Below, piece after piece: positions 1,335 through 36,588 of a stretch of 64,000 nt of DNA. Origin of the DNA: a virus. The stretch covers positions 5,725 to 69,724 of the IMG/VR virus record IMGVR_UViG_3300044960_000476; one strand, given 5' to 3'. Numbering within the stretch: the stretch's first letter is position 1; every line of letters begins with the position of its first letter. A program made the translations under genes and the position numbers. The notes beneath the pieces are model-generated. The model worked only from the letters and a program-made list of their open reading frames with translations. It had not been told where the DNA came from and did no database searches.

Positions 1335-2750
1335 TTACAGCGGTATATTTGACAAGTCGTCAAGCTCTTCAAAAGCGTCTTCAATGTCTACTGTAAAATT
1401 AGGCTCGACTGCGTGGGGTAATGCAGGGTTTTCCTCAGGCAAATACCAAGCAGCCATAGCCAAGCTAACTACCCTGTCATCTTTACCACGCCCCGCTGCA
1501 TGCATTTTAAGCGCACCCGACGGGGTGCGCTCATACACAAAGTCAGCAAACTCCTGAATGTATTCTTTGTCGTCAGGTAAAACAATACGTTGGTTTTCAA
1601 TAAGCAACGCTAGCTTGTTAATGTATTTTTCTTTTTCGACTGTCGTGCCAAAGTTAGCAGTCGACAAAGGAACGCCCATATTAGCCAGCTGCTCAGTAAG
1701 CGGGTCACCAATACCACGCGAGTCAACCACAACAAAAGAGTTGGGGTATTCGCGTTGTAGAGCAGCTAACTGATTAAGCTGGCGCTCCCAACTAACAGTA
1801 TTAAGTCGCTGCACACGAACAACAGTGCGTGTGTCTAAATTTAAGACAGTAAAAACGCTAAAGTCGTCTAAGCGAGCAAAGTCAGCACCAATTACATAAC
1901 GGTGAAATTTACTTTGTGTATTAATTGGCGTAACAAACAATTCGTTTTCCGTTTTGTGCCAAACTTTTTGTTTTGGGCATTCCCACAAACGTTGAAATAC
2001 TGAGCCTGAGTCAGGAATAAACTCTGCGCCATATTCTTGACGAAAAGCACGTTCAGGTTGAATTCGCTTTTGTTGCTCAAAAAACTCCGCAGAAACGTTT
2101 GGGTTTGCTTCCCATGTAGGAAGTTGCCAACAAGCGTATTGCGTATGGTTGGGCCAACCCGGTTTGTCTTTATATTCTAAAGCCGTCCTAAACAGTTCAT
2201 ATACCCAGTCATAACCTTTAGGCGTAGTAATAAGCAACACCCAACCTTGCGTCGTAGTCAATGTGGGCAACAAGCTTTCAAAAAACACTTGTTGGTCCGT
2301 CATTGCCGCTTCGTCCATGATTAGGTAGTCGAGGGTAGCACCACGCAAGTTATCGGGGTTGTCACTGGTTTTTCCCTGAAAGCGGCTAGTTGCTACAAAA
2401 CGGCCTTTGCTGTCGTAATGATGCACGTCTAGACGCATCATGCGCCGCGACAGCGATATTTCTCGTTTACCAGGAAGACGCTCGTGTGCCTTTTTAACCA
2501 TTTCCGCTACACGCTCAAAAACAAAAGTAGCTTGCTCGTAAGTTGGTGCAACTACCCAACCGCGAGAACCGTGGCTAAACAAAATTTCGTAAGCTGCCTC
2601 AACAGCAGCTATTTGGCTTTTACCAGACTGACGGCCTACTACTACAACCCTATATTGCGCCCAAGAGTCATGAACGGCTTGTTGGTAAGGATAAGGCTTA
2701 TAGTCGATAAGACGGAAAAAAGCTGAAGAGGGGGCATGTTTCCTAAGCAT
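1335..2750 (-). CDS. terL: Terminase large subunit
   Basis: Walker A GRQSGKS, VAPTYEQA, NLRGATLDYLIMDEAA (Walker B), TTPKG, nuclease IGADFARLDD and KDDRV. Closely resembles Thermus phage P74-26 TerL as I recall it. Confidence 0.97.
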   Translation of the reverse strand: MLRKHAPSSAFFRLIDYKPYPYQQAVHDSWAQYRVVVVGRQSGKSQIAAVEAAYEILFSHGSRGWVVAPTYEQATFVFERVAEMVKKAHERLPGKREISLSRRMMRLDVHHYDSKGRFVATSRFQGKTSDNPDNLRGATLDYLIMDEAAMTDQQVFFESLLPTLTTTQGWVLLITTPKGYDWVYELFRTALEYKDKPGWPNHTQYACWQLPTWEANPNVSAEFFEQQKRIQPERAFRQEYGAEFIPDSGSVFQRLWECPKQKVWHKTENELFVTPINTQSKFHRYVIGADFARLDDFSVFTVLNLDTRTVVRVQRLNTVSWERQLNQLAALQREYPNSFVVVDSRGIGDPLTEQLANMGVPLSTANFGTTVEKEKYINKLALLIENQRIVLPDDKEYIQEFADFVYERTPSGALKMHAAGRGKDDRVVSLAMAAWYLPEENPALPHAVEPNFTVDIEDAFEELDDLSNIPL

Positions 2751-2791
2751 ATATGTATGTATGTATCAAGCCCCCACTGTATGCTCTTATT

Positions 2792-2802
2792 ATTATACCA
2801 TA
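2792..2802 (-). promoter_or_regulatory. Extended -10 promoter (TATGGTATAAT) for terL
   Basis: TGnTATAAT in the terS-terL gap; the same 14-mer TTTATGGTATAATA occurs at 4797-4810. Confidence 0.7.
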
Positions 2803-2804
2803 AA

Positions 2805-3368
2805 TTAGTCTTTTACTGAACTATATTCCACGTCAATTACTTTTGGGGGCTTCCTAACGAATTCGTCAAGCTTAATAGCTTCGCCTTCGGGTAACGCGGT
2901 CGCGGCGTTGGAAGTGTTCTTAAGCCTATTGCTCATTTCAGTAATAACCGCAAGTCTTGCACGTCTTATTTGTTCGAGAATTTGTAGCTGTTTTGTCAAG
3001 TCTTTAACGGAAACCGGCTCAATGCGCTTACCGTTTTCGTCGTAATATTGTCCTTCATTTTGCATTTGCCAATTACTTTTGGCGCGAAGGTACAGCTCAT
3101 TCATTTCTTGCTCAATAACAACGCTTTTTGCTAAATAACCCGCTAATTCATGCTCAACTAGGCTAGACAAGTCAATATTGCCTACCGCCGCTTTGATGCG
3201 GCGGTAGGCTTTTTCGACTTGCTTAATGGTGCAGTCATACTGCTTGACTAAAGTGTTGTAAATTTCTCGTTGCGTAAAACCCCAAGATGCAAGAGTAAAT
3301 ACCTGTTCATAAAAACTGACCTCTTCTTTTGACTTTACAAGCTGTCGCACCTTATCCAGCACTGACAT
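2805..3368 (-). CDS. terS: Terminase small subunit
   Basis: Directly upstream of terL. N-terminal HTH (VSFYEQVFTLASWGFTQREIYNTL) plus helical oligomerisation region, resembling P74-26 TerS. Confidence 0.8.
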   Translation of the reverse strand: MSVLDKVRQLVKSKEEVSFYEQVFTLASWGFTQREIYNTLVKQYDCTIKQVEKAYRRIKAAVGNIDLSSLVEHELAGYLAKSVVIEQEMNELYLRAKSNWQMQNEGQYYDENGKRIEPVSVKDLTKQLQILEQIRRARLAVITEMSNRLKNTSNAATALPEGEAIKLDEFVRKPPKVIDVEYSSVKD

Positions 3369-5187: not shown

Positions 5188-5610
5188 ATGTTCCAGGAAA
5201 TGCGCAAGGTCTTCACGGCGGTCATGGACACTCTCTCGACTTCTCCGGCTCTCATCGGCCACGTGGTGGTACAACTGGAGAAGTGGGATATCAGCGATAC
5301 CGCGTGGACGGTCATCTCGTTCCGCTTGCGCGGGAAGCTGCTGGGTTACCTGCGGGTCTTCAGCAGCTACGCGGTGGCCCGGGCCAAGTACCCGGAAGGC
5401 AGCAAGCCCTACGTCTTGTGGCGGTATTGCGTCGAGCAGGTGAGTGAGCCTCTTGGCACACTTGCACCCAGCATCGGCGAGCTTGAGGACGATGTCCTCG
5501 ACGAACTCCAGGCCGAGGCTGAAGCCGAACGGCAGGAGCGCGAGAACGGTCTCAAGCAGATGGTGACCAAAGGCCGTGTCCGTAAGGCCACAAAGGCCGA
5601 CGGCAAGTAG
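5188..5610 (+). CDS. Hypothetical early protein
   Basis: AAGGAGG RBS, 140 aa, GC3-rich codons. Confidence 0.8.
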   Translation: MFQEMRKVFTAVMDTLSTSPALIGHVVVQLEKWDISDTAWTVISFRLRGKLLGYLRVFSSYAVARAKYPEGSKPYVLWRYCVEQVSEPLGTLAPSIGELEDDVLDELQAEAEAERQERENGLKQMVTKGRVRKATKADGK

Positions 5611-5618
5611 CACATACC

Positions 5619-5647
5619 GGGAGTGAGCCCAGTTTGGGCTCACTCCC
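5619..5647 (+). other. Perfect 13-bp intergenic hairpin
   Basis: GGGAGTGAGCCCA-GTT-TGGGCTCACTCCC; no U-tract. Confidence 0.7.
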
Positions 5648-5671
5648 AAACCCAAAGAATGGAGGTAAACC

Positions 5672-5929
5672 ATGCTCAAAGTCAAGATGAATCAAAATGT
5701 CCTGAGCACGTTGAAATTCGTGGGTAAGACAATGTATAACGGTATCAGCATTACTTATCAACCGTGTATTTGGTCTCGTAAACGCGCAATTTCAATCAGC
5801 TTGCGCAATAAGGTTTTGGCGTATGGCGAGTTCGACGGCGACGGGGACGTAATTACGTTCCGTCTAGTGAGCCAAGATAAGTACTACGCCCAATTAGCAG
5901 CCAGGGTCATTCGGATGATTACCGAATGA
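5672..5929 (+). CDS. Hypothetical early protein
   Basis: GGAGGT RBS, 85 aa. Confidence 0.8.
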   Translation: MLKVKMNQNVLSTLKFVGKTMYNGISITYQPCIWSRKRAISISLRNKVLAYGEFDGDGDVITFRLVSQDKYYAQLAARVIRMITE

Positions 5930-5934
5930 CTCAG

Positions 5935-5972
5935 GAATAAGCGCCAGGGGAGTTATCCCCTGGCGCTTATTC
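5935..5972 (+). terminator. Terminator-like hairpin
   Basis: GAATAAGCGCCAGGGGA-GTTA-TCCCCTGGCGCTTATTC just after the stop at 5929. Confidence 0.6.
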
Positions 5973-6150
5973 GTTGCTTGTGCGCTGTGGCCTGTGGCGC
6001 GACAGCGTTGACGCTGATGCTGTCAACTCGGCCCAGGCTGTAGCGCTGACGCTTGGCCTAGCGCTGCTGGGCCGATGGCTTGGGCTTGGGCTTGGGCGAC
6101 GGCGGCGGCGGCGGCGCGCCCCGGCGGAGCCGGGCAAGGGCGCCTGTGAT

Positions 6151-6549
6151 GTAGTACACCTCTGATGTGGTACGACAAAACGCGGGCCGCAAAAGGGTCA
6201 GAGAATTTGATAGCCCCCCGGAGAGGCCCAACCCGCCCACCCAAAAGTAGTACACCAAAAGCAAAAACCGGACATGACTGAGGTAGTACGCCAGCGCTCG
6301 GCTGTGGTTGCCCCGCTCGTCCCACCACTCGCGGTCCGTACCACCCCCATCGCGCCCACCCTCAAAGGTGGTACACACGCACAGCGCGGTAGAGGTAGTG
6401 GTGGTTTTCTCTCACAAGGCTGAGGTAGTACACCCGGCGGGCCTTGACTGGCCCGCCCGCCCACCCTAAGGTAGTACACCGTCCATCAGCCGGTCCATGC
6501 GGGTGGCCGGTCCTGACTGGCCCGCCCACCCGCCCTTAGTTGGTACGCC
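6151..6549 (+). repeat. Cluster of GTRGTACRCC boxes with CCCGCCCACC boxes
   Basis: Copies at 6151, 6167, 6247, 6283, 6368, 6425, 6471 and about 6540, plus one inverted at 6338. Confidence 0.8.
6444..6472 (+). promoter_or_regulatory. Host sigma-A promoter upstream of the phage RNAP gene
   Basis: TTGACT-17 nt-TAAGGT. Confidence 0.55.
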
Positions 6550-6595
6550 CGCCGCCCACGAGAAAAACAAAAAACAAAAAACAAAAAAACAAAAA

Positions 6596-6621
6596 CGCCT
6601 ACCGGCGACTGACCAGCGGAG
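6596..6621 (+). promoter_or_regulatory. Hairpin motif copy (putative phage-RNAP promoter)
   Basis: CGCC-TACC-GGCG ACTGA CCAGCGG, preceded by A-tracts at 6563-6595. Confidence 0.55.
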
Positions 6622-6626
6622 CAAAA

Positions 6627-6788
6627 GAAAGGAGTGACAACTCCTTTCGCGGCAGCGCCGCCGCTACCGGCCTAGCACGGGCGGCCTGTCGGCGGTCAAG
6701 GGTTCGCTTCGCCCTTCGGCCCTTGACCGCCTGGCCGCCCGTGCTGGCCTCCGCTTAAGCGGCGCTGCCGCTATGCGAAAGGAGTTGT
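6627..6788 (+). promoter_or_regulatory. Structured 5' leader of the RNAP gene (about 150-nt rod pairing with the SD)
   Basis: Nested arms ACAACTCCTTTCGC/GCGAAAGGAGTTGT, GGCAGCGCCGC/GCGGCGCTGCC, AGCACGGGCGGCC/GGCCGCCCGTGCT, GGCGGTCAAGGG/CCCTTGACCGCC. Confidence 0.75.
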
Positions 6789-6796
6789 GGTAGAAG

Positions 6797-8926
6797 ATGG
6801 TAGAGAAACTAAGAAAAATAGTAACAGACAAAGAAGCTACCCTGGTAGAAAAGAAAAACGTTTACCAGGGTAAAATGGTCAATGGAGAGTGGCTACCAAC
6901 TTCTCTCCACGACCGTTATGGCAATATCGTCCGCGTCGTGAAGGTGGAGCGCGATGCGGACAATGAGCTCATTACCCCTGTCGCCAAGGTAGATACTGAA
7001 TTCGTCTTTGTAGGCGGTAACCGTCATCGGGCCGTCTACGTAAAAGAAGACAGCCTTGCCCGGTGGTTGGATGCCGCCGCCGGTGACTCCAACTGGGCTG
7101 CGGCTTCAATGCTGCGGCCCGGTAAGTTGACGAAAGAGAATAAAGAGTTTGGCTGGACGGGGTATGAGGAGTCCAGCCTCGACACCGGTCTTCTCGCCAT
7201 TATGTCGCGGGAAGACTGGACAGTATTCGTTCAGGCGTTCGGTCTACCTGTGGAGGCAAAGCTTGCACAGGTGACTGTCTTCGACCTGGATAACATGGTG
7301 TCCGCAAAGGGCACCATCAGGGTGGCGTTCAGCGGAGAGCACCCAACCGTCTTCCCAAGTTCGTGGAAGAGGTTTGGCGAACTGCGTACCGAGTTTTCCG
7401 CTGTCCTAACTGTTGACGCGGTATACCGCCCCCAAGCGTCTATTAATGCCCAGGAGCTGCAGTACTGGTGCTACAGCAGGGGGCGCAAGTTGGCGGATTG
7501 GGTCTGGGAGGAATTGGCCCAGGCCCAGGAAGCCGTCCTACAAGAAAAGGGGTCTGTATGGACCCCGTATGGATACTTGAGTGCCCTCGGTATGTCGGGG
7601 GCTTTAAAGTCCGTCACCTACGACCTGGTGGACGGGCAACGCGGCAGCTTAACCAATATGTTGCGACGGGTGAAGTTTAGCGCCCGTCGCGGTTTGCGGG
7701 CCAAAACGACCGCGACCGCCATCATTAAGGAAGGAGAAGTACTCCTTCCCGAAGAGGCGAAGCGGCACGTGCGGGTGGGGCAAACGGTTGTAGTAGGTAG
7801 AAACCCCGCGTTGCCTAGCCAGGACTGGCAGGTATACAAAGTCGCGGGGTTCATACCTGCTAACGTCGTTGCATTTAACCCGAACGACCGGGGCTGGACC
7901 GCCGAACTCGGTGGCGACCACGATGGCGATGACTGTGTAGTTTACTACCAGTCACCCGTCGTCGGCGGCGAACCAGTCGGGCAACACGGGCTTGACCTGC
8001 AAAGCATCAAGCCGCAAGCCCGCAAGTTGGACAGCAACACCGTTGAGGCTAGGCTTCAGCGGTGGAAGAACGAAACGGCCGCAAACATCGGGCAGTTCGA
8101 GATTAATGCCCGGCGTTTGTCAACCAAAGGGCACCTTACCACCGAGCGTGCCAAGTTGTTCACTACAGCCATTCAGACGGTAATTGCGTTGAAGAAGCGG
8201 GTGGCCAAGCTGGAAGAACAGGCTTGGTACCCGGCAGTCGACGAGCTGATGGACGCGGCCAGCCGGTTGAGGGGCAAGAACGACGCGGACCGTATTAAGC
8301 GGTTCGCAGCGGGCGAGGTCGAGCAACGGTTCGACAACCCCACGACCGCTGCGTTGGCCGAACAGCTGCGCGGGTCGTTGGCACTGGTGACCACCCGGCA
8401 CCGGTACAACGACAGCGAAGAAATGCGGGCGCTGTTCGGTGCCAATGCGGAAGCGCCCAGCATTGTCAAAAACATGCTGGAAGAATACTATAGCCTCCAG
8501 ACGGCCAAAGCCGAAGCCAAACTGATGGGGGCCGACGTCCACCACCTGAACCAGCGCTTGAAAGTGCTGGTGCATCTGGAAGGCCCCGAGGTGATGATGA
8601 CCCTCGATGAAGAGGCGTGGAAGCAGGCCAGCAAATGGCTGATAGCAAACGCGCCCACCGAGGTGTGGGTGTACTGGAGCCACCCCGAGGTCATCCGCGA
8701 GTTTCTGACCTTCGTGGGCGCGACTAAAATTCGCATCGTTGGGCCGGTGGAAGAAATAAAACTTGAGGTGGGCGAAGTCGTCGAAGTGGACCAAAGCGGA
8801 CTCCGCGAGCTGGTCATCGACGAACAGGAGTTCGTGGTGGCCGAAGAGACGGGCTACCTCGAAGCCGGGCGCTACCAGGTGGTGGCCGTGAGCAAGCGCG
8901 GCGCTACTCTCGAAAAAACAAAGTAG
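6797..8926 (+). CDS. Single-chain two-barrel RNA polymerase (cellular RdRP/YonO/P23-45 gp64-like)
   Basis: Double-psi-barrel motifs in order: AKGT, VVVGRNPALP and LGGDHDGDDCVV (DxDGD metal-binding loop); first large gene of the early region. Confidence 0.88.
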   Translation: MVEKLRKIVTDKEATLVEKKNVYQGKMVNGEWLPTSLHDRYGNIVRVVKVERDADNELITPVAKVDTEFVFVGGNRHRAVYVKEDSLARWLDAAAGDSNWAAASMLRPGKLTKENKEFGWTGYEESSLDTGLLAIMSREDWTVFVQAFGLPVEAKLAQVTVFDLDNMVSAKGTIRVAFSGEHPTVFPSSWKRFGELRTEFSAVLTVDAVYRPQASINAQELQYWCYSRGRKLADWVWEELAQAQEAVLQEKGSVWTPYGYLSALGMSGALKSVTYDLVDGQRGSLTNMLRRVKFSARRGLRAKTTATAIIKEGEVLLPEEAKRHVRVGQTVVVGRNPALPSQDWQVYKVAGFIPANVVAFNPNDRGWTAELGGDHDGDDCVVYYQSPVVGGEPVGQHGLDLQSIKPQARKLDSNTVEARLQRWKNETAANIGQFEINARRLSTKGHLTTERAKLFTTAIQTVIALKKRVAKLEEQAWYPAVDELMDAASRLRGKNDADRIKRFAAGEVEQRFDNPTTAALAEQLRGSLALVTTRHRYNDSEEMRALFGANAEAPSIVKNMLEEYYSLQTAKAEAKLMGADVHHLNQRLKVLVHLEGPEVMMTLDEEAWKQASKWLIANAPTEVWVYWSHPEVIREFLTFVGATKIRIVGPVEEIKLEVGEVVEVDQSGLRELVIDEQEFVVAEETGYLEAGRYQVVAVSKRGATLEKTK

Positions 8927-9316
8927 CGCCTCCGGCGCCCTTCCGGCGGGGGTTGGACCTAAAAAGGGTCCAACCCCCTAAACCATGCAGGCCGCCTGCC
9001 GGCGGCTTGCCAGCGGGGGCCAAAGCCCCCAAAGACAAAAGAAAAAGGGCGCCTGCCGGCGCCCTTCCTGCGGGGCCTGGCGGCCCAAGGAGGAAAAAAT
9101 GAAAAAAGAAATGAAAGAAAAAGTCCTCATGGTAGCGACGGCCGTGGCGTGGGGCCTGTTGGTCCCGGGCCTGGTCCTGGGGTTCCTGGTCGGCCTGGCC
9201 ATTTTCCGGGCCGTCTTGGGCTAAAACACAAAGGGGCGCCTCCGGCGCCTCTCCGGCGGGGGGTGTGAAGCCCCCAAGGCAAGAAGAAAGCCGCCTGCCG
9301 GCGCCGCCCAGCGGGG
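8926..9316 (+). repeat. Five copies of the hairpin motif CGCC-T(G)CC-GGCG-N4-5-CCNGCGGGG, each followed by a G-run stem-loop
   Basis: Copies start at 8926, 8991, 9049, 9236 and 9290; all intergenic and in the same orientation. Confidence 0.9.
9099..9224 (+). CDS. Small membrane protein (41 aa)
   Basis: AAGGAGG RBS; long hydrophobic segment VLMVATAVAWGLLVPGLVLGFLVGLAIF. Confidence 0.7.
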   Translation: MKKEMKEKVLMVATAVAWGLLVPGLVLGFLVGLAIFRAVLG

Positions 9317-9342
9317 CAGGAAAGCCCCGAAAGGAGGTAAAC

Positions 9343-9624
9343 ATGAAACTCATGGACGTAGTTTTGTTGGTGTGCCGTGCCCTCAGCCTGAACGTAGACA
9401 TCATTGCGACCCCAAACGGAGCAATGCTCACTGACGAAAAGGGCAGCCCCGTCGGGGTGATGCGGTTGGTCAATGGCCGCCGCCTGGAAATGGTTTACAG
9501 GAGCGGCAAAGGCGTGGTAAAGCAAGCCATCAGGCTTCCTAAGTTTGTCACCCGACCAATGCATGCGGGCGACAAGCTTCGGGCAGTCGCAGCTGTTGTC
9601 GTCGAGGAGGCGGCTATGGCTTAG
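9343..9624 (+). CDS. Early protein, paralog family E copy 1
   Basis: AAGGAGGT RBS before ATG 9343; MKLMDVVLLVCRAL...DEKGSPVGVMRL. Confidence 0.8.
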   Translation: MKLMDVVLLVCRALSLNVDIIATPNGAMLTDEKGSPVGVMRLVNGRRLEMVYRSGKGVVKQAIRLPKFVTRPMHAGDKLRAVAAVVVEEAAMA

Positions 9625-9683
9625 AGGGGCGCTGTGCCCCCTCGCATGAGGGGGTACGCCTCAGCTAAAGAAAGGGGGTAAAA

Positions 9684-9938
9684 ATGAAACCACGGTTGAT
9701 AGACATAGTGGCATTAGTTGCCCAAGCCATCCGGGGCGGTAAACACCGGGTGGCACTTGGGCCGCAAAAAACCGGTGGCGCTGTATTTGACGACGCGGGA
9801 GAGCCCGTTGGCCTGTTCAAGGTTGAGGGAGAAACACTCCACATCTCCTTGGACGTACACGGCCAAGTCGAGTACTACAAACTCGGCTTGGAAAGATACC
9901 TAAAACAACTTTCTCTGGCAAAGGGGGTAAGAGCATGA
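9684..9938 (+). CDS. Early protein, paralog family E copy 2
   Basis: AGGGGG RBS; RLIDIVALVAQAI...GGAVFDDAGEPVGLFKV. Confidence 0.8.
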   Translation: MKPRLIDIVALVAQAIRGGKHRVALGPQKTGGAVFDDAGEPVGLFKVEGETLHISLDVHGQVEYYKLGLERYLKQLSLAKGVRA

Positions 9939-10063
9939 AAAACGAAGAGGTGTGGGGTGTAATAACCTACTACCCGCCTTGCGCGGCAAAAAAGCAACGC
10001 CGCAATTGGCCTAGGTGGTTCAGATACACCATCCGCAGGCTGTTCAGGTTGAACCGCAAATAA
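9935..10063 (+). CDS. Small basic peptide (42 aa)
   Basis: ATGA overlap with the previous gene, AGGGGG RBS; MKNEEVWGVITYYPPCAAKKQRRNWPRWFRYTIRRLFRLNRK. Confidence 0.55.
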   Translation: MKNEEVWGVITYYPPCAAKKQRRNWPRWFRYTIRRLFRLNRK

Positions 10064-10074
10064 ACAGATAATGT

Positions 10075-10100
10075 GCGCCTCCGGCGCCGTCCGGCGGGCG
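10075..10100 (+). promoter_or_regulatory. Hairpin motif copy
   Basis: GCGCC-TCC-GGCGC CGT CCGGCGGG. Confidence 0.65.
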
Positions 10101-10128
10101 GTGCTGGAGGCCCAGAAAGGAGAAAACT

Positions 10129-10500
10129 ATGCTGGTAAACACCATCAAAGCAGCGGCCCAAGCTTTGGGCGTTAAGTCGGAACCGGAAGTAATTGTAAGC
10201 ACCCACCGTGGTGACACTCACTACGGTGGTGCGTATATGGCCACCGGCGGCATCCTGGAGAATGGGCGGCAAATTGGCCTCTTTAAGGCGGAAGAGAAGC
10301 GCGGTAAAACCGCCGTCGAGTTGCTGCTAAACACTCCATCAGGAGTAAAGAAAGCCTGCTTGAGGATATCAGCCCAGTTGGGCGAACTGAAATCCACCAG
10401 GGAAGGGTTGGCCTACACGGAAGGAATGGCCGCCAAGAACTGGTGGCCGACTGATGCGAGTGGACGGCGCTTCGAAAGCCGTCCGTTGCCCGAAGAATAA
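10129..10500 (+). CDS. Early protein, paralog family E copy 3 (divergent)
   Basis: AAAGGAG RBS; MLVNTIKAAAQAL...GGILENGRQIGLFKA. Confidence 0.75.
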   Translation: MLVNTIKAAAQALGVKSEPEVIVSTHRGDTHYGGAYMATGGILENGRQIGLFKAEEKRGKTAVELLLNTPSGVKKACLRISAQLGELKSTREGLAYTEGMAAKNWWPTDASGRRFESRPLPEE

Positions 10501-10526
10501 GCGCCTCCGGCGCCTGACCAGCGGGG
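10501..10526 (+). promoter_or_regulatory. Hairpin motif copy
   Basis: GCGCC-TCC-GGCGC CTGA CCAGCGGGG immediately after a stop codon. Confidence 0.65.
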
Positions 10527-10573
10527 TGTTCACGGAATGGGCCAACGTGGACACCCCCAAAAGCCTTTGGCCC
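10523..10573 (+). ncRNA. H-type pseudoknot in the 5' leader of the gene at 10589
   Basis: Stem 1 GGGGTGTTCACG/CGTGGACACCCC (one G.U); loop GGGCCAA (10539-10545) complementary to TTGGCCC (10567-10573) next to the SD. Confidence 0.55.
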
Positions 10574-10588
10574 GAAAGGAGAAAAAGT

Positions 10589-10804
10589 ATGGCCTATCTT
10601 TGGTTTCAAACCAGCACCTACCGCGGCCACATCCTTAACGAGGTGTGCGCAGACATCGAACCGGGCTTGCAAATGCTAGAGGAAGCCCTCGACAGCGGTA
10701 ATTTTGTCGAGGGATATGTCCGCGTGGGTAAAAGGAAGTACCCGTTCACGGACACGAATGCCAGCGACGTCATTGCTACTTTACTAGAGAGCAAAGTCAT
10801 TTAG
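10589..10804 (+). CDS. Hypothetical early protein (71 aa)
   Basis: AAAGGAG RBS before ATG 10589. Confidence 0.75.
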   Translation: MAYLWFQTSTYRGHILNEVCADIEPGLQMLEEALDSGNFVEGYVRVGKRKYPFTDTNASDVIATLLESKVI

Positions 10805-10823
10805 GGGTGGTTTATCCACCCTT

Positions 10824-10888
10824 GGGCCGCAAGCCTCCACCTCCACGTGGTGCGGCCTGGGAGCCCCGCAAGGGGAACTAACGGAGGC
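10824..10888 (+). ncRNA. HDV-like self-cleaving ribozyme
   Basis: P1 GGGCCGC/GCGGCCT (G1.U), P2 GCCTCC/GGAGGC, P3 ACC/GGT, L3 TCCACGT, P1.1 CC/GG, P4 CCCC-GCAA-GGGG, J4/2 CTAAC. Confidence 0.9.
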
Positions 10889-10906
10889 AAATGAAAGGAG
10901 TAAAGT

Positions 10907-11287
10907 ATGCTGAATGTAAAGCACATGTACCAGGGAGTTATTATCCGCACCCCTTACAGCAAGAAGGGGCAGGCTAAGACGGGCGACCACTTCACCACTT
11001 ACAGGGCTTTGGCTGATGAAGCGAGCAACCGTTGGCTTGACCTGTACGTCTTTGGCGACGAGGCGGTTTTGGCTGTGCTGCCTCAGAAGCTGCTGGTTCG
11101 CGGAAACGTTTCCGTGTTGAACCTGCCCCAAACCCAAGAACTGCCCGGAAAGACCATTCTTGGGGCAAACGCCCTCTCCCTGGAAGTTTGGGACAGGGGG
11201 AAAGGAAAATGGACCAAAATGGCCGCGTTCATCGCGGGCTTGGCGGCTAAAGCGGAGGCAGAGGAGGCAATTGAACTGGAGTTTTGA
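10907..11287 (+). CDS. Hypothetical early protein downstream of the ribozyme
   Basis: AAAGGAG RBS; 126 aa; acidic C-tail ending ELEF (SSB/OB-fold-like, tentative). Confidence 0.8.
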   Translation: MLNVKHMYQGVIIRTPYSKKGQAKTGDHFTTYRALADEASNRWLDLYVFGDEAVLAVLPQKLLVRGNVSVLNLPQTQELPGKTILGANALSLEVWDRGKGKWTKMAAFIAGLAAKAEAEEAIELEF

Positions 11288-11378
11288 GGGCCATAAGGCC
11301 CTCTCACTGAGGGGGTACACCCCCGCTAAATGCGGGGGAGTACTCCCTTGGTCAAAGGAGGTGGTACACCAGCCGGAA

Positions 11379-11389
11379 TGTGATATACT
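11379..11389 (+). promoter_or_regulatory. Extended -10 promoter facing the non-coding region
   Basis: TGTGATATACT. Confidence 0.5.
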
Positions 11390-11757
11390 AGTAAGCATGT
11401 AGTACGCTCTTGCGGAGCCAGGCAGGGGGCGGGGCGGCAGCCCCGCCCCCCTACTGTCTGCAAATAATTCTCTCCTTACTCTCCCATAGTTATTTTCAAA
11501 CACCCCCGGGGTGGGGGTACAAACCAGCCGAGTAGTGTCCGTTTGGACAAATGGCTAGCCTCTACTCGGCAAGGTGTGTCGACAGACTGGGGAGTAAGCT
11601 ATTTGGCTTACTCTCCAGTTGTTTCTATTTGCTATTTTCTATTTCCTGTTTGCTAACCCCGCGCGGGCAAGCTTGTGGCCTTTAAAGCGGTCGCGGTGGG
11701 CATGTTATCCAGCTTCGTCACAGACGTAAAAAATGAAGCTGACATTCAACAAACCCG

Positions 11758-12386
11758 CATTCTTCCAATATAAAAGTGGGGGGTGGCCTTATTTTGGCTT
11801 ATACGGCCTCAGAGAGGCCAAATTTTTGGATGCCAATTTTGGGGTCGATAAGAAAGGCATTTTTTGCACTTAATATGCTTCCCCGGTATATTTACCCTTA
11901 AACCACCTTACCCCCGTCTTAAAATTGATTATACGGCCTTACAGAGGCATTCTAGAGGTGGGGTTTAAACCTGACGAAAAGTTTGGGGTTAGGAAATAGG
12001 AGCTAGGAAATAGGAAGTAGCAAAATGCTTTACCTTGCTATTTCCTACTCCGCTATTTCCTACTCCGCTATTTCCTAACTCCTAGTTTCTATTTTCTAAC
12101 CCATAACCCACTCTTTTTCTCCGTCCAGGACGTTATTCACCCAACTCACCCTTAATTTATGCCCATTCTTACGATATAAAAATGGGGGGTGGCCTTAAAA
12201 TTGATTATACGGCCTTATAGACCCCTTTTAAGCGGATGGCAAAATTGGGGTCGATAAGAAAGGCAAAAATTGAAGCTAATGTGTCACCCCGGTATATTAC
12301 CCCTTAGAAGGGCTACCCCCCGTCTTAAAATGGCTTATACGGGCTTATAGGGCCATTCTACGGAGGGGGTTGCAAGCTGGCGAAAA
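11758..12386. repeat. Imperfect 223-bp direct duplication (11758-11980 and 12164-12386)
   Basis: Shared blocks GGGGGTGGCCTTA, GGGGTCGATAAGAAAGGCA, CCCCGGTATATT and CCCCCGTCTTAAAAT; TTATACGG at 11799, 11929, 12205 and 12335. Confidence 0.9.
11990..12100. repeat. TAGGAAATAG / CTATTTCCTA short repeats in inverted arrangement
   Basis: Two TAGGAAATAG copies, then three GCTATTTCCTA copies at 15-bp period. Confidence 0.8.
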
Positions 12387-31125: not shown

Positions 31126-31838
31126 AGCCCGTACTTGATAAAGGCTTTGTCCGGTTGGTGGGCTATAACGTTGACTTAATTGACGCAAAAGAAGAAAATT
31201 TTGGCTTTGTGCTATTCAATGGGCACACTCTTGATGCACAAATTGTGCGTGCAGCTAGAGTTAGTTATGGGCATGGCACTAAGACTGTGCGCGATGACGC
31301 CAAGCTTATCAAGTATTTGTTAAAGCATGAGCACTGGTCACCATTTGAAATGGTGGAATTTAAATTTCATGTTAAAGCCCCTATTTTTGTAGCAAGGCAA
31401 TGGTTTAGGCATCGCACGGCAAACGTAAACGAAATATCAGGACGCTATTCTGTGTTGCCTGAAGAAGTTTATATTCCTGAAGCTTTTCGCAAACAAGACG
31501 AAAAAAACAAACAAGGCTCAAACGGTACGCTAGATGAATACACAAATGCTCACGCCATTGATGCATACACAGAAGCCGTAGCTTATGCTTTCGAAGCTTA
31601 TAAAGCTTTGTTAAAAGCAGGCGTTGCAAGAGAAATGGCGCGTATGGTGTTGCCTTTGTCTACATACACCGAGTTTTACTGGAAGCAAGACTTGCGCAAC
31701 CTCTTGCATTTCCTGCGCCTGCGCATGGACCAGCACGCGCAGTGGGAAATTCAAGAATACGCTCGCGCTATTCTGTCCATAATTGAACCATTCTTGCCTA
31801 TTACTATTAACGCTTGGAAGGAGCTTCAAGATGAGTGA
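31119..31838 (+). CDS. thyX: Flavin-dependent thymidylate synthase
   Basis: AARVSY, HWSPFE, RQWFRHR...NEISGRY, AREMARMVLP, HAQWEI. Confidence 0.97.
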   Translation: MVKPVLDKGFVRLVGYNVDLIDAKEENFGFVLFNGHTLDAQIVRAARVSYGHGTKTVRDDAKLIKYLLKHEHWSPFEMVEFKFHVKAPIFVARQWFRHRTANVNEISGRYSVLPEEVYIPEAFRKQDEKNKQGSNGTLDEYTNAHAIDAYTEAVAYAFEAYKALLKAGVAREMARMVLPLSTYTEFYWKQDLRNLLHFLRLRMDQHAQWEIQEYARAILSIIEPFLPITINAWKELQDE

Positions 31839-34800
31839 CTTGCGGGAGTACATTTGGAAGAAGCAGTATGCTCAAGGCAACGAGTCTATTGAGCAAGGTT
31901 TTAGGCGTGTAGCTGAAAACATTGCATTGGCTGAACCTATTGATAAGCGAGAAGAAGCTATTGAAGCTTTCTTCGAGATGATGCAGTCCAATAAATTTAT
32001 TCCTGGTGGCCGTATTCTAGCCGGTGCGGGAAGTGCGCATGGAAATAACTTAAATTGCTTGCATGGGGACACTCTAGTACAAACCCGTGAAGGGGTTTTT
32101 CCTATTCGTGCCTTGGTTGGGCAAAAGCATCAAGTATTGACTCGCAACGACACCTGGCGTTGGGCAGAATTCCGCGAGTTTGGTCAACAAGAATTGTACC
32201 GCGTCGTTTTTAGCAATGGCGAGGAAGTGCTTGCTACAGCCAACCACCGTTGGTACACCCGAAAAGGTGTATACACTACGCAACAATTAGTCAATAAGCG
32301 CATTCCGGTAATGGCAACTTATATTCGTCCGCCTAGAAACGACGACTATTACCAGGGAGTGCGCCACGGTTTGGTTTATGGTGATGGAAGCAAAAATTCT
32401 ACTTCTTACACATATGGGTTGAGGCTATTTGGCATTAAACAGTCTTTGGCTCAAATGTTTGATAGCTATGCCAAAATAACTGAAAAACAATATGGCGGGC
32501 GCGAGCAAACCGTAGTGACTGTAATTGGCGGCCATTACAAGGAGTTGCCGCCCGCTAATGCTAGCGACAGCTATTGGTATGGTTTCTTCTGTGGGCTTCT
32601 TGCAGTCGACGGCTGTGTTGATGAGCTTGGCTCGGTCATTATTCATTCTGCTGACAAAGAAGCCCTGCAAACCATAGCCAAGCGACTCAAACACTTTGGT
32701 ATTGCTTATGCTAGCCTTAAATGTACTCGCGAGCTAAGCCCGTATGACGGCAGCCATAAACCGGTGTATGGTTTACGTCTTTTCCGTCGCACCCTGATGC
32801 CGGAAGACTTCTTGCGTGAGGACCATCGCCGACGTTTTGTAGATAAGTCGCAAAGCGGCAAGCACTCTAGTCTAAAAGTTGTCGCTGTTGAATCTACCGG
32901 GCTGACTGAAACTGTTTATTGCGCTGTCGAGCCTGAAACGCACAGCTTTGTCCTTGCGGGCGGTATTCTGACCGGAAATTGCTTTGTAGTGGACGGCGCT
33001 CCTGAGCCACCCGGAAGCAATGATTGGGCTTTGTTGCTTGCTAAAAAGCTAGCACTTATTACCAAAGTTGGTGGTGGTACGGGGCTTAACCTTGACCCTA
33101 TTCCGCCCCGTCGCAATTTCCTGCAGCAAACCGGTTCTCTTTACATTTACATTAACCCTAACCACCCCAACTCGGACGACGTTTACACTGGACGCATTAC
33201 TCAACGCTTTACTGGTCTAAAAATTGAGCAGGGCTATAAAGTTGCCGGTATTTTGACTAAAGTCAAAGACGCACCACAACGTGCTGAATGGCTGCTTGTT
33301 GAGGACTCTATTGAGTCCATTTGGGACAATGCAGCCCAAATGGTTAAGCTCATGCTTGATGGAAAAGACGTAGTGGTGTGTTTGGACGCTCTAAGGCCAG
33401 AAGGCGCGTGGGTTAATGGCTCTGGTGGTGAAAGCAGCGGCCCTGCTTCTTTCGCTGTTGAAATTTTCGACAACTATGCACGTTGGGCTATGCGCGGTGG
33501 TGCCGAGTATGCAGGCCCTGTAGCCACGCTTCGTTATCTGTATGCCCCTACGCTAAGGGTTATTAAGCAAGGCGGCACTCGCCGTGGTGCGGGTATGGCA
33601 ACCCTTAGCATTCATCATCCAGACATTAACGACTTTATTACCTGCAAAGACTTGGACCGCGAAAACGCGGAAGGTGACATTTCCACTTTCAACATTAGCG
33701 TACTGGTTGACAACAAAACCATTGAAAACTATCAGAATAACGAAAGCACTGCTTGCGCCTTGCTACAGGCTATTGCCGAACACGCCCACGCCACCGGTGA
33801 GCCTGGAGTGCTCTTTGTTGACACCATTAACGCCAATAACCCCTTAGCTGCTATTGACGGCCCTATTGTTGCTACCAACCCTTGCTTTGTCGGTGAAACC
33901 CGCATTCCGACTGAATTTGGTTTGGTGCCCATTGAGCAACTAGTTGACAAAGAAAGCTTTAAGCTGGTTACTGACAACCGTGCTCCTTTGTTTGGCCTTG
34001 GGCAACCCAATGAAAGCCTTGGGGTAACTGTAAGAGGCAATGTTCGGGCGTTTTACACCGGAGAGCGCGAAGTAATTCGCGTTGAAACAAAAGAAGGCTT
34101 TACTCTGACGCTAACGCCTGACCATAAACTGCTTACTCCTTCAGGCTATCGTAAAGCGGGTGACTTGCAACCCGGCGACAAGCTGTTTGTGCAAAGCGGA
34201 GAGGGCTTGTGGAGTCAAGATAAGGCTCTTCCAGCTGAAACGCTAAACTTTATTGCTGAGCGTTTGCCTAAAGCTGGTGGTAAACACTCTAGCGGTAGGC
34301 GTGACATTCGTGAGCAGTATGCCAACTTGCCTACCGAGTGGAGTGAAGAATTGGGTTTGGCGCTTGGTTGGCTTATTGGTGATGGCTTTGTGCGCAAAGA
34401 CGGCGTAGGCTTGTATTTCAGCAATAAAGAATTTGCGGATGCGCAAACTGTTGTTAGCAGTTTGCGTAAATGGTTTGGGCAAGGTTATTTAACGGCAACT
34501 AACTTTAATACTCAGTATTTGCGTTTTGGTAAACTACCAGCAGAATTTTTCATGACGCTTGGTGTAAAGCCTGTCAAAGCCACCGATAAGCAAGTGCCAG
34601 AAAGCATTTTCACTGCACCTCGGGAAGCCGTGCGTGGTTTCTTGCGTGGGTTGTTTAGCACTGACGGTACTGTCGAAGGTGGCGTGCACAAAGGGACATG
34701 TAGCGTCAGACTAGCCTCTTCGAGTAAAAAATTACTTGAAGGCGTGCAGTTGTTGTTGCTCAATTTTGGTATTTTTGGACCTATTTATCATCGTAGGGCG

Positions 34801-36588
34801 GCTCAGCGTAAAGCTTTGCCGGATGGTAAAGGTGGACTAAAAGAGTACTCTGTTGCTGACCAGTACGAACTTATTATCGGTGGCAAAAGCCGCGACCGCT
34901 TTGCTGAAGTTATCGGTTTTGCCTTGCCGCACAAGCAAGCCAAACTCGAAGAATTTGTTTGTTTTAATAAGAACAAACAAAGAAAATTCCGTCGCCAAAG
35001 CTTTGAAGCAACAATAACTAAAATTGAGCCTGTAGGTGTTGCTAAAGTTTATGATTTGACAGAACCAATTGGGCACAGTTTGGTTGCAAATGGTGTGGTG
35101 GCACATAATTGCGCCGAAATAACATTGTATCCCGGAGAACCATGCGACCTCGGCGCTATTAACTTCTCCGAATTTGTTAAAGACGGTGCTATTGACTACG
35201 AAGGTTTAGCTCAAACTGCTAAATTAGCCGTGCGTTTTCTTGACGATGTGCTCACCGTAGAAAAAGCACCGCTTAAAGAAATTACGGCTGCTATTGAAGA
35301 CAAGCGTCGCATTGGCCTTGGTTTGATGGGGCTAGCAGACGCGCTCATTAAGCTCGGCATTGCGTATGATAGCGAAGAAGGAAGAAAAGTTGCCGCAAGC
35401 ATGTTTGATGCTGTGGTCAAAGCAGGACTGCAAGCCTCAAAAGACTTGGCCGTGGAGCGTGGTGTGCCTGACGGAGTGCGCCGAGCCGGGCTAGCGAGGC
35501 GCAATATTGCCCTATTTACTGTAGCGCCTACCGGCACTACTTCAATGCTGGCGGGAGTGTCGAGTGGTGTTGAACCTGTCTTTGCCGCTGCCTATGACCG
35601 CCGCATTGACACTGAAGTGCACAAAGTGCTGCACCCTTTGCTTGTCAAAATGCTAAATGAGCAAAATGCTTTAGAGTGGGCGCGCCAAGCTAATGTACCA
35701 ACGGTTAAAGACGGGCAATGGAACCTTGAGCTTATCATTGAAGGTATTAACAAGGCTCACGGTAGCGTTCAGCCTTTTGTTGAACGTGGTTGGTTGCCGC
35801 CTTGGTTTGCTTGCTTTAAGATAGCTCACGACATTACTCCAAAAGACCATGTGTTAATGCAGGCGGCCATTCAGCGGGTTATGGACCAGGAAATGGCCGG
35901 GAATTCCATTTCCAAAACTATTAACCTGCCCAACCACGCCAGCGTAGAAGACGTGCTATCAGCTTACGTACTAGCCCACAAAGAAGGTTGCAAAGGATGT
36001 ACGGTTTATCGTGACGGTAGCAGGGCTTTCCAAGTGCTTTCGGTAGAAGACGGCGACTTTGAGTCTTGGGCAAAACAGTTCGAAACTGTAAGCGCTAAAC
36101 CAAACGATAATAATGCTACTTTTGTTTCAGCCCTAAGGACGCGTCCGCGTGTTATTCAGTCGCTAACACACAAATACGAAGTTGGTGGCCGTAAAATTTA
36201 CGTCACCGTCGGCTGGAATGAAAAGGGCGAAATTGTCGAGGCTTTTATCAACCTGTCCAAGCCAACGCCTAACGAAGCCGTAATAGCTGACTTGGTTGGT
36301 AGGTTGCTGTCGGTGGCGTTTAAGCATGGCGCTGAAGTTAAAGACGTTGTAAAGCACCTACAAGGGCATTATGACCAATCTGGTGGCTTCTCAGAGGGTA
36401 TGGGCTTTGTTAACTCTATGTGGGATGTGGTTGCCCATGCGCTGCTGAATACGGGGCCAAATAGCGAAACTAAAAATATTTTAATTAATGCACCGCGCAC
36501 CGACAGCTGTCCTGAGTGTGGTGGCCCTCTTGTTAGGAAAGGCGGATGCAACAAATGTGAGAAGTGTGGCTATGAAACGTGTGGCTAA
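31831..36588 (+). CDS. nrdJ: Class II (B12-dependent) ribonucleotide reductase with two inteins
   Basis: FIPGGRIL, RRGAGM, TFNISV, TGEPG, TNP|C, EPCDLG, RRIGLG, TVAPTGT, SISKTIN, TVYRDGSR; TSCPD-like and Zn-ribbon C-terminus; no nrdB in the window. Confidence 0.93.
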   Translation: MSDLREYIWKKQYAQGNESIEQGFRRVAENIALAEPIDKREEAIEAFFEMMQSNKFIPGGRILAGAGSAHGNNLNCLHGDTLVQTREGVFPIRALVGQKHQVLTRNDTWRWAEFREFGQQELYRVVFSNGEEVLATANHRWYTRKGVYTTQQLVNKRIPVMATYIRPPRNDDYYQGVRHGLVYGDGSKNSTSYTYGLRLFGIKQSLAQMFDSYAKITEKQYGGREQTVVTVIGGHYKELPPANASDSYWYGFFCGLLAVDGCVDELGSVIIHSADKEALQTIAKRLKHFGIAYASLKCTRELSPYDGSHKPVYGLRLFRRTLMPEDFLREDHRRRFVDKSQSGKHSSLKVVAVESTGLTETVYCAVEPETHSFVLAGGILTGNCFVVDGAPEPPGSNDWALLLAKKLALITKVGGGTGLNLDPIPPRRNFLQQTGSLYIYINPNHPNSDDVYTGRITQRFTGLKIEQGYKVAGILTKVKDAPQRAEWLLVEDSIESIWDNAAQMVKLMLDGKDVVVCLDALRPEGAWVNGSGGESSGPASFAVEIFDNYARWAMRGGAEYAGPVATLRYLYAPTLRVIKQGGTRRGAGMATLSIHHPDINDFITCKDLDRENAEGDISTFNISVLVDNKTIENYQNNESTACALLQAIAEHAHATGEPGVLFVDTINANNPLAAIDGPIVATNPCFVGETRIPTEFGLVPIEQLVDKESFKLVTDNRAPLFGLGQPNESLGVTVRGNVRAFYTGEREVIRVETKEGFTLTLTPDHKLLTPSGYRKAGDLQPGDKLFVQSGEGLWSQDKALPAETLNFIAERLPKAGGKHSSGRRDIREQYANLPTEWSEELGLALGWLIGDGFVRKDGVGLYFSNKEFADAQTVVSSLRKWFGQGYLTATNFNTQYLRFGKLPAEFFMTLGVKPVKATDKQVPESIFTAPREAVRGFLRGLFSTDGTVEGGVHKGTCSVRLASSSKKLLEGVQLLLLNFGIFGPIYHRRAAQRKALPDGKGGLKEYSVADQYELIIGGKSRDRFAEVIGFALPHKQAKLEEFVCFNKNKQRKFRRQSFEATITKIEPVGVAKVYDLTEPIGHSLVANGVVAHNCAEITLYPGEPCDLGAINFSEFVKDGAIDYEGLAQTAKLAVRFLDDVLTVEKAPLKEITAAIEDKRRIGLGLMGLADALIKLGIAYDSEEGRKVAASMFDAVVKAGLQASKDLAVERGVPDGVRRAGLARRNIALFTVAPTGTTSMLAGVSSGVEPVFAAAYDRRIDTEVHKVLHPLLVKMLNEQNALEWARQANVPTVKDGQWNLELIIEGINKAHGSVQPFVERGWLPPWFACFKIAHDITPKDHVLMQAAIQRVMDQEMAGNSISKTINLPNHASVEDVLSAYVLAHKEGCKGCTVYRDGSRAFQVLSVEDGDFESWAKQFETVSAKPNDNNATFVSALRTRPRVIQSLTHKYEVGGRKIYVTVGWNEKGEIVEAFINLSKPTPNEAVIADLVGRLLSVAFKHGAEVKDVVKHLQGHYDQSGGFSEGMGFVNSMWDVVAHALLNTGPNSETKNILINAPRTDSCPECGGPLVRKGGCNKCEKCGYETCG
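32056..32979 (+). mobile_element. Intein 1 in NrdJ (308 aa, LAGLIDADG endonuclease)
   Basis: N|CLHGDT...TANHRW...GLVYGDG...GLLAVDG...ILTGN|C. Confidence 0.92.
33883..35109 (+). mobile_element. Intein 2 in NrdJ (409 aa, LAGLIDADG endonuclease)
   Basis: NP|CFVGET...TPDHKL...GWLIGDG...GLFSTDG...VYDLT...VAHN|C. Confidence 0.95.

Follow-up and report, generated by a model that had tools for sequence, protein, structure and literature searches.

A GC-rich inverted-repeat rod at the ribosome-binding site of a phiFa-like phage RNA polymerase gene, a candidate structured leader

Messenger RNA (mRNA) leaders in which the Shine-Dalgarno sequence (SD) is occluded by one of several alternative pairings, and irregular hairpins lying before phage polymerase genes, are structures of already known kinds. 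The early mRNA of phage T7 carries RNase III sites, including R1, which lies before gene 1, and R1.1, and the RNase III sites of phage early mRNAs show a single-cut geometry in which a bulge has about one helical turn on each side; in phage lambda the cIII mRNA exists as two conformers, and the N leader contains an SD-occluding structure that is relieved by RNase III. Here we describe a structure located at 6627-6796 of a 64,000-nucleotide (nt) stretch of viral DNA (the whole of the stretch analysed, referred to below as the window), where a GC-rich rod made of nested inverted repeats ends at the SD of a gene encoding a phage RNA polymerase homologue. What is new in this locus is the presence of such a rod at the polymerase SD across phiFa-like relatives, together with compensatory changes in one of its helices (P3) and a UA-containing bulge on its 3' side. 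The elements concerned are the following.

6627-6635, plus strand: decoy GAAAGGAGT, an exact copy of the real SD, forming a 9-base-pair (bp) hairpin with 6640-6648
6636-6639, plus strand: loop of the decoy hairpin, GACA, read in the sequence
6640-6648, plus strand: anti-SD ACTCCTTTC, common to the decoy hairpin and to helix P0
6637-6650, plus strand: 5' strand of P0, ACAACTCCTTTCGC, a 14-nt 100% inverted repeat with 6775-6788
6649-6661 with 6759-6771, plus strand: helix P1, a 13-nt 100% inverted repeat
6669-6686 with 6733-6749, plus strand: helix P2, consisting of 4 bp, a bulged U6673 and 13 bp (helix walk)
6691-6702 with 6720-6731, plus strand: helix P3, a 12-nt 100% inverted repeat with a 17-nt apical loop and a CAAGG/CCTTG core
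6733-6771, plus strand: 3' strands of P2 and P1, separated by the internal loop 6750-6758
6770-6776, plus strand: pure 3'-side bulge between P1 and P0, GCUAU or UAUGC depending on the register; candidate processing site
6775-6788, plus strand: 3' strand of P0 and SD region, GCGAAAGGAGTTGT, including the real SD GAAAGGAGT at 6777-6785
6600-6610, plus strand: upstream segment, predicted partner of 6784-6793 (3' part of the SD and spacer) in the decoy state
6797-8926, plus strand: 709-amino-acid (aa) open reading frame (ORF), a non-virion two-barrel RNA polymerase of the phiFa gp44 / P23-45 gp64 family by homology and catalytic motif

The locus resembles T7 R1 and R1.1 in that an irregular hairpin immediately precedes the gene for the phage's own RNA polymerase, and in that two helical segments are arranged around an asymmetric 3'-side loop or bulge. 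It differs from the T7 sites in the dimensions of the structure, window-type rods being multi-helix, 120-190 nt long and much larger, in their number (a single rod per locus, for the window among the inverted-repeat pairs listed), and in the polymerase, which is of the two-barrel kind and unrelated to the T7-like family; cleavage, moreover, is only a candidate process here. With lambda cIII and N it has in common the existence of structures that exclude one another at similar energy, the SD being hidden in one of them, and opening by processing is plausible in this case as well, whereas the competitor in the window is an exact upstream copy of the SD within a local hairpin, and the alternative pairing is unconserved both in relatives and in a near-identical strain. 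Type I toxin mRNAs, as treated in the part of PMC6733600 available to us, provide a further parallel: there, upstream anti-SDs and long-distance pairing between the 5' and 3' ends govern access to the ribosome-binding site (RBS). The window likewise combines an upstream anti-SD with long-distance pairing over the RBS, but the gene is of another class, no antisense RNA partner was seen, and the barrier at 65 °C is too low for a kinetic trap. No structure upstream of a phiFa-type polymerase gene is described in the literature text available (including PMC10770324 and PMC7515739, supplements aside).

An earlier note on this DNA, made from the sequence alone, had identified the downstream gene as that of an RNA polymerase, and sequence comparison bears this out. 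ORF 6797-8926 aligns by tblastn with gene 44 ("RNA polymerase") of Thermus phage phiFa, which sits in the 5' long terminal repeat of that phage, at 42.6% identity over 98% of the query (E 4e-160), and by BLASTP with P23-45 gp64 (E 6e-8), the latter alignment extending over the DxDGD region. The motif GGDHDGDD is invariant among 27 polymerase homologues. Pfam RdRP scored 22 bits on the 709-aa ORF, under its cut-off of 23.8, and the polymerase profile retrieved nothing from PDB sequences at E<=0.01. On sequence grounds the gene is a phage RNA polymerase homologue of the phiFa gp44 / P23-45 gp64 type. In the available part of Chaban et al. 2024 (PMC10770324), gp64 is described as a non-virion two-barrel polymerase using GC-rich promoters, the two-barrel clade takes in RNA-dependent polymerases, and the virion polymerase of P23-45 is said to transcribe gp64; the same source reports that phiFa and G18 possess a gp64 homologue and lack the virion polymerase fused to the tape-measure protein. 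In the window, the 2999-aa ORF at 50699-59698 (minus strand) has no Pfam match and resembles P23-45 gp96 in the C-terminal tape-measure part alone, the virion polymerase at the N terminus finding no counterpart, and by this weak test the window phage appears to resemble phiFa in its tape-measure ORF as well. The phage record itself is a 69.7-kilobase (kb) viral contig estimated to be 63% complete, and the runs in which it occurs, which may be those it came from, are labelled as hot-spring or microbial-mat metagenomes.

The rod is formed by the four nested helices P0-P3, which were read from the inverted-repeat listing and lie directly 5' of the polymerase SD; P2 also appears there as part of an imperfect inverted repeat (6674-6692/6727-6745, 19 nt, 89%). 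Folding of 6600-6810 as RNA gave -122 kcal/mol and z -7.43, none of 200 dinucleotide shuffles being equally stable, and folding of 6620-6800 as DNA gave z -8.83. The statement in the earlier note that pairing of the SD closes a rod of four helices is thus upheld by the nested repeats and by the RNA fold. Nesting of several inverted-repeat pairs was found at the rod only, among the 25 pairs listed of the 42 found in the 64-kb window, the remaining intergenic structures of which are short hairpins. A search of 5400-7200 against Rfam at E<=1 returned no match of use, only two microRNA models and one snoRNA model, none of them anywhere near its gathering score, so that no informative riboswitch or curated cis-regulatory RNA family was matched in this region.

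The comparison with relatives covered the window and four other loci (L003, L004, L006 and phiFa L008), these four representing three independent lineages; L003 and L005 are one contig, and the closest protein homologues (P0002-P0005, 75-52% identity) were left out of it. Searches with a polymerase profile supplied two relatives from viral contigs (a single protein as query supplied none) and at least three from metagenome contigs, and two polymerase scans of genome contigs supplied none. A GC-rich rod adjoins the polymerase SD in all four of the other loci with upstream sequence, at polymerase identities of 34-45%, and although the rod sequences mostly differ between lineages, the distance from rod to SD is 0-5 nt throughout. 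In phiFa and L006 the rod is multi-branched, 163 nt long and ends 2-4 nt 5' of the SD. In L004, whose polymerase is 34% identical, it is about 220 nt long and the SD lies inside a 7-bp basal helix, ACAACTC/GAGTTGT, identical to the core of P0 of the window; the L003 contig starts inside the rod.

Two structural details recur. Pairing in helix P3, with its CAAGG/CCTTG core, is kept through changes on both sides at six pair positions in four lineages. MAFFT alignments of the leaders are not structurally meaningful, and ten compensatory pairs obtained from one in which P2 and P3 were misaligned were not used. Furthermore, a pure 3'-side bulge of 4-5 nt with UA is present in all four complete rods (three independent lineages), namely GCUAU/UAUGC in the window, UACU in L004, UAGU in L006 and UAGA in phiFa. 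From the rod base to this bulge there are 12-16 bp, and beyond it comes a helix of at least 11-13 bp: in the window, helix walk gave 14 bp, the 5-nt 3' bulge and 11 bp, in both phiFa and L006 it is 12 bp, a 4-nt 3' bulge and 13 bp, and L004 is similar. The check by covariation in related phages that the earlier note had proposed therefore comes out in two parts, compensatory changes being present at the six P3 positions and the bistability of decoy and P0 being unconserved. The conserved feature is the rod itself, which that note had treated as secondary.

The region upstream of gp64 in P23-45 provides an outer point of reference. The gene is homologous, and its SD, GGGAGG, can pair with a nearby CCUCCC much as the SD of the window can pair, yet this upstream region differs in being only 77 nt long and in containing a terminator-like hairpin and a 6-bp stem, with no rod and z -1.67. 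Since rods occur in the relatives and none in P23-45, while the decoy is unconserved, the rod is best regarded as a trait of the phiFa-like branch and the decoy is not. A gapped pattern written for window-type rods gave five matches in viral contigs, all of them unrelated hairpins or promoters.

At the RBS of the window, the coordinates and sequences that the earlier note had assigned to decoy, loop, anti-SD and SD are correct. The anti-SD at 6640-6648 pairs either with the decoy at 6627-6635 or with the SD at 6777-6785, never with both, as follows from the inverted repeats and from folding, and the two pairings are of comparable predicted energy, again in agreement with that note. When 6620-6810 was folded with the decoy hairpin enforced (state A) or with P0 enforced (state B, SD closed), the ensemble energies were -115.0 and -116.6 kcal/mol at 37 °C, and -70.8 and -72.9 kcal/mol at 65 °C, the gap remaining at 1.6-2.6 kcal/mol across 37-75 °C. 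Passing from A to B along the direct path means crossing a barrier of 11.9 kcal/mol at 37 °C and one of 8.0 kcal/mol at 65 °C. Which structure has the minimum energy depends on the assumed 5' end of the RNA. With the 5' end at 6550 or 6600 the decoy pairs have a predicted probability of 0.69-0.83 and the closing pairs of 0.17-0.31, and with the 5' end at 6620 the closing pairs reach 0.96-0.98.

For 5' ends at or upstream of 6600, state A gains a helix between 6600-6610 and 6784-6793, which hides the spacer together with the SD in its 3' part, and the decoy ("open") state is for this reason not fully open. Consistent with this, the mean predicted unpaired probability of AGGAGU is 0.02-0.45 with 5' ends from 6550 to 6636, and about 0.9 at 65 °C only when the RNA begins at 6649. 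Its predicted accessibility differs little between 37 and 65 °C, and at 75 °C the rod has not yet unfolded. In the window GGAG of the SD ends 12 nt ahead of the ATG at 6797; the spacer is 5 nt in L004. A 10-nt tandem near-duplication, TGGTAGAAGA / TGGTAGAGAA, lies across the start codon of the window (6788-6807). A leader peptide behind the decoy SD was considered and rejected on a reading of 6627-6660, which holds no start codon at a usable distance.

The transcription unit to which the rod would belong is framed by the following elements.

6147-6549, plus strand: eight direct copies of a 14-nt promoter-like motif of the TGAGGTAGTACACC type, a repeat family; candidate start region of the polymerase mRNA
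6560-6596, plus strand: A-rich (AAAAACA)n tract (Tandem Repeats Finder 6563-6595, period 7, 4.6 copies), predicted to be unpaired
8926-8939, plus strand: 14-nt motif GCGCCTCCGGCGCC, its first base being the last of the polymerase stop codon; the transcription unit probably has its 3' boundary here

Boxes of the GCCCACCC type precede four of the eight copies of the TGAGGTAGTACACC-type motif, and a weight matrix located further strong copies at 9647, 11308 and 11357 (plus strand) and at 14202 and 63222 (minus strand), most of them intergenic; judging from this distribution, these motifs look like phage promoters. At the equivalent place in phiFa, L006 and L004 there are arrays of GCCCGCCCACC-type boxes, as well as purine-rich tracts corresponding in position to the A-rich tract. 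A sigma-70 promoter scan of 5400-7200 gave no sites, and between 6550 and the ATG at 6797 there is neither a sigma-70-type site nor a TGAGGTAGTACACC-type motif. Given the rod-to-SD gap of 0-5 nt and the lack of a promoter-like site there, the rod is taken to be transcribed together with the polymerase gene, unless a promoter of unrecognised type lies inside the rod, and leaders starting upstream would contain the whole element, a point on which the earlier note had depended.

The explanation that we favour, tentatively and with somewhat less than even confidence, is that the rod is a conserved structured leader which acts at the RNA level, throttles translation of the polymerase and is opened by processing. 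According to this proposal the polymerase mRNA would have a long 5' leader with 6627-6796 as its 3' portion, and in the window phage and in L004 the base of the rod would hold the SD, keeping polymerase translation down. In full-length leaders the RBS would be mostly, though incompletely, occluded, becoming fully open only without the 5' arm. Of the possible routes of opening, we judge an endonucleolytic cut at the conserved 3'-side UA bulge, in a geometry like that of T7 R1.1, to be the most likely; following such a cut the decoy could capture the anti-SD, the 5' fragment could dissociate and the SD would be freed. When a cut at the bulge was modelled at 65 °C, the 5' fragment was bound to the mRNA body by -4.4 to -7.4 kcal/mol with the decoy present and by -10.3 to -11.2 kcal/mol with the decoy absent, and because modelled binding of the cut fragment is weaker with the decoy, the latter gains a rational role. 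Helix walk also found the arrangement expected of an RNase III-type site, that is, about two helical turns split by an asymmetric 3' bulge. What the analysis establishes is the pairings, their energies and the conservation of the rod in position and structure; that the rod acts as RNA, lowers translation and is processed is inferred, and no signal-responsive switch is demonstrated by these results.

If such a throttle or processing step does operate, the locus would show polymerase dosage being controlled through the mRNA by a thermostable element, and its layout of decoy and SD would amount to a compact, designable device for releasing an occluded RBS. A rod at the polymerase RBS is an obvious candidate control point in phages without a virion polymerase, and one that lends itself directly to testing in phiFa, which can be cultivated with Thermus thermophilus. 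Should the rod be no more than a hairpin for stabilisation or a palindrome in the DNA, its interest is local, for the annotation of these phages.

A number of observations weigh against the favoured explanation and are gathered here. Not every rod occludes the SD: those of phiFa and L006 leave it outside, and its predicted accessibility there is higher. The decoy is absent in L004, and the cut-and-release scheme is consequently not transferable to that locus. The folding statistics are less striking once base composition is taken into account, the rod holding rank 2 at -2.8 standard deviations (sd) in a GC-regression scan of fold energy (1303 segments, each of 180 nt, drawn from three loci), a strong outlier without being an extreme one, and the phiFa rod reaching only -1.9 sd, which is attributable to the fact that at 78% GC everything folds strongly. 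RNase III-type sites are multiple in T7, whereas one multi-helix rod was found in 64 kb among the pairs listed. G:U pairs are very few (1/59 in the window, 1/77 in L004, 2/65 in L006, 2/65 in phiFa and 1/49 in L003), and the minus strand folds equally well or slightly better in all five rods; as pairing is nearly pure Watson-Crick and both strands fold, plus-strand RNA is not marked out over DNA as the selected structure.

Further points of this kind come from a second strain in the same sample, which is about 98% identical to the window over 6153-6808, with 11 differences and one gap, seven of them itemised. Three substitutions alter P0 without compensation (6637 A>C, 6775 G>C and 6777 G>A), another (6774 T>C) is next to P0, and no itemised difference falls within 6649-6771. 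With the substitutions of this variant, RNAs that begin at 6550 or 6600 have a predicted closing-pair probability of only 0-0.02, and one that begins at 6620 has 0-0.25. What close relatives conserve upstream of the gene is, in addition, a whole region and not the rod specifically: phiFa and L006 are 98-100% identical from position 1835 to the SD and then only 63-79% identical over the first 500 nt or so of the polymerase gene (the low-identity stretch is 2535-3034 of phiFa L008), after which high identity resumes. The same identity break separates the window from the second strain after 6808. The N-terminal part of the polymerase appears, from these two sequence comparisons, to be hypervariable or exchanged by recombination, with a mosaic boundary at the SD and start codon.

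That the rod is a processing or stability element only, whether an RNase III-type site or a protective 5'/3' hairpin setting the polymerase cistron apart from a long, heterogeneous leader, and that its overlap with the SD in the window phage is incidental, is a view we consider unlikely. In its favour, every complete rod has a 3'-only bulge set between helical segments of 11-14 bp, the rod stands directly before the phage polymerase gene as R1 does in T7, and in phiFa and L006 it leaves the SD free; neighbouring early genes, too, have hairpins adjoining their SDs and a conserved motif at their ends. Speaking against it are the occurrence of a single rod per locus (for the window, among the pairs listed) and the pairing of ACAACTC/GAGTTGT at the SD, which is common to two lineages. 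As this helix is shared between loci whose polymerases are only 34% identical, the overlap with the SD is suggested not to be incidental in the branch of the window and L004.

A true two-state switch, as put forward by the earlier note, would have the decoy hairpin as its ON state and the SD-closing helix as its OFF state, the choice between them being governed by folding kinetics, temperature, start-site choice or a binding protein. The small energy gap between the states, the flip of the preferred state with the 5' end and the presence of eight candidate promoters upstream, through which start-site choice could matter, all agree with it, as does a possible analogue in phiFa and L006, where an anti-SD/SD-like hairpin, CCACCUCU...AGAGGUGG, is found about 50 nt before the rod. 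That hairpin lies inside the last promoter-like module and may be outside the transcript in both phages. Gating by temperature is not supported by the predictions, in which the SD is almost equally accessible at 37 and 65 °C, and an RNA thermometer was rejected on the grounds that the SD helix is predicted not to melt over this range and that the structure is still present at 75 °C. Gating by kinetics in the thermophilic range fares no better, as a barrier of about 8 kcal/mol at 65 °C implies, by a rough rate estimate, that states A and B probably equilibrate fast. Given little temperature response and a low barrier, tuned partial occlusion fits the results better than a thermometer or kinetic trap.

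The phylogenetic record also counts against a switch: L004 is without the decoy, phiFa and L006 are without P0, and in the second strain, where three substitutions break P0 pairing and are not compensated, the predicted two-state balance is lost. Even in the decoy state the SD of the window is partly paired with 6600-6610. Taken together, these points make a true switch distinctly unlikely in our estimation. L006 does, for its part, have a 12-nt copy of its SD region on both sides of the rod, and in phiFa the copy is imperfect.

A third possibility is that the palindrome functions as DNA, forming a cruciform or hairpin in a replication origin, at a recombination boundary or as a promoter-proximal element together with the repeats and the A-rich tract. 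The near-pure Watson-Crick pairing, the equal folding of the two strands and the DNA fold (z -8.8) are all in keeping with this, and selection on, or mutational maintenance of, a DNA palindrome fits the rods as well as selection on RNA does. The succession of eight direct repeats, A-rich tract and palindrome is reminiscent of iteron origins, and the identity break at the rod/SD boundary is sharp in two strain pairs. A DNA element has, on the other hand, no need to end always at 0-5 nt from an SD; asymmetric multi-nucleotide bubbles and a 17-nt apical loop are unfavourable to cruciform extrusion; DnaA-box matches occur at chance level (14 found against 12.3 expected); and a clearer iteron array is available at 11985-12100. 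We accordingly rate function as DNA as very unlikely.

The suggestion that the rod is a binding site of the polymerase itself, as an autogenous operator, a 6S-like promoter mimic or an RNA template, can be given the least credit of all: it draws on the placing of the enzyme in a clade with RNA-dependent polymerases (Pfam RdRP at 22 bits; PMC10770324, in the part available), on the conservation of the rod together with the polymerase gene and on the need for negative feedback that would arise if the upstream motifs were the polymerase's own promoters, while the rod shares with 6S RNA a rod-like fold of roughly 150-180 nt and differs from it in matching neither 6S nor any other informative Rfam model at E<=1, in having no large central bubble (its centre is a continuous helix and its largest internal loop, 7x9 nt, is near the base), in being embedded in an mRNA leader where 6S is a free small RNA, and in showing no significant similarity to the upstream motif array in six comparisons. 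The 6S-like decoy envisaged by the earlier note is not supported, and the rod is not 6S-like. The more particular idea that an RdRP-related polymerase recognises the rod as an autogenous operator or promoter mimic in a feedback loop, possibly also as a template, and that this forms part of a phiFa-like transcription strategy, is likewise highly improbable.

Several other identities were tried for the rod and dropped. In the comparison with the motif array none of the six scores exceeded the maximum of 200 shuffles, one score of 26 being marginally over the 95th percentile of 25, and a palindromised promoter module was discarded for lack of significant similarity. An intrinsic terminator or attenuator was rejected, terminator-like hits (6648-6627 and 6617-6601) being on the minus strand only, and the plus strand presenting the rod followed by TATGCGAAAGG. 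The sequence GAAAGGAGT flanks the structure as a direct repeat (6627-6635 and 6777-6785), as a target-site duplication would; a palindromic element resembling a miniature inverted-repeat transposable element was nevertheless ruled against, the record matching only itself and its own reverse complement and the rods of relatives differing at the same site. Searches with the region against 50,697 phage records (megablast and blastn) gave no match.

Upstream of the motif array, 5900-6079 is the most structured 180-nt segment of the GC-regression scan (-3.3 sd), and a fold of 5925-6150 has z -6.2. This segment holds a 17-bp perfect terminator-like hairpin (5935-5972), which is followed by a second large fold before the array.

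Downstream of the polymerase gene, GCGCCTCCGGCGCC has five exact plus-strand copies (8926, 9236, 10075, 10501 and 15770) against 0.43 expected, the first four of which stand just behind genes of the GC-rich early region. The motif may serve in termination or processing and recalls the conserved motif at the termination sites of P23-45, as these are described in the available part of PMC10770324; no exact copy is present in the 11 fetched loci. The small early genes downstream have GC hairpins ending at their SDs (9040-9100, 9290-9344 and 10075-10130, with the SDs AAGGAGG, AAAGGAGG and AAAGGAG), and as this layout is shared among them, a hairpin adjoining the SD seems to be a general design of the early region.

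The motif array, the rod, the polymerase gene and the small early genes are all covered by a GC-rich island (6001-12000, 54-59% GC, compared with about 40-50% elsewhere in the genome), whose composition hints that the module came from another source. Iteron-like arrays lie at the island's edge, at 11985-12100 and 11622-11655, with three tandem copies of GCTATTTCCTACTCC (12037-12082) facing inverted TAGGAAATAG repeats; from their sequence, these arrays would be a better candidate for the replication origin than the rod region. Farther along the window, a ribonucleotide reductase gene (1601 aa, 31783-36588, plus strand) is split by an intein with a LAGLIDADG endonuclease domain.

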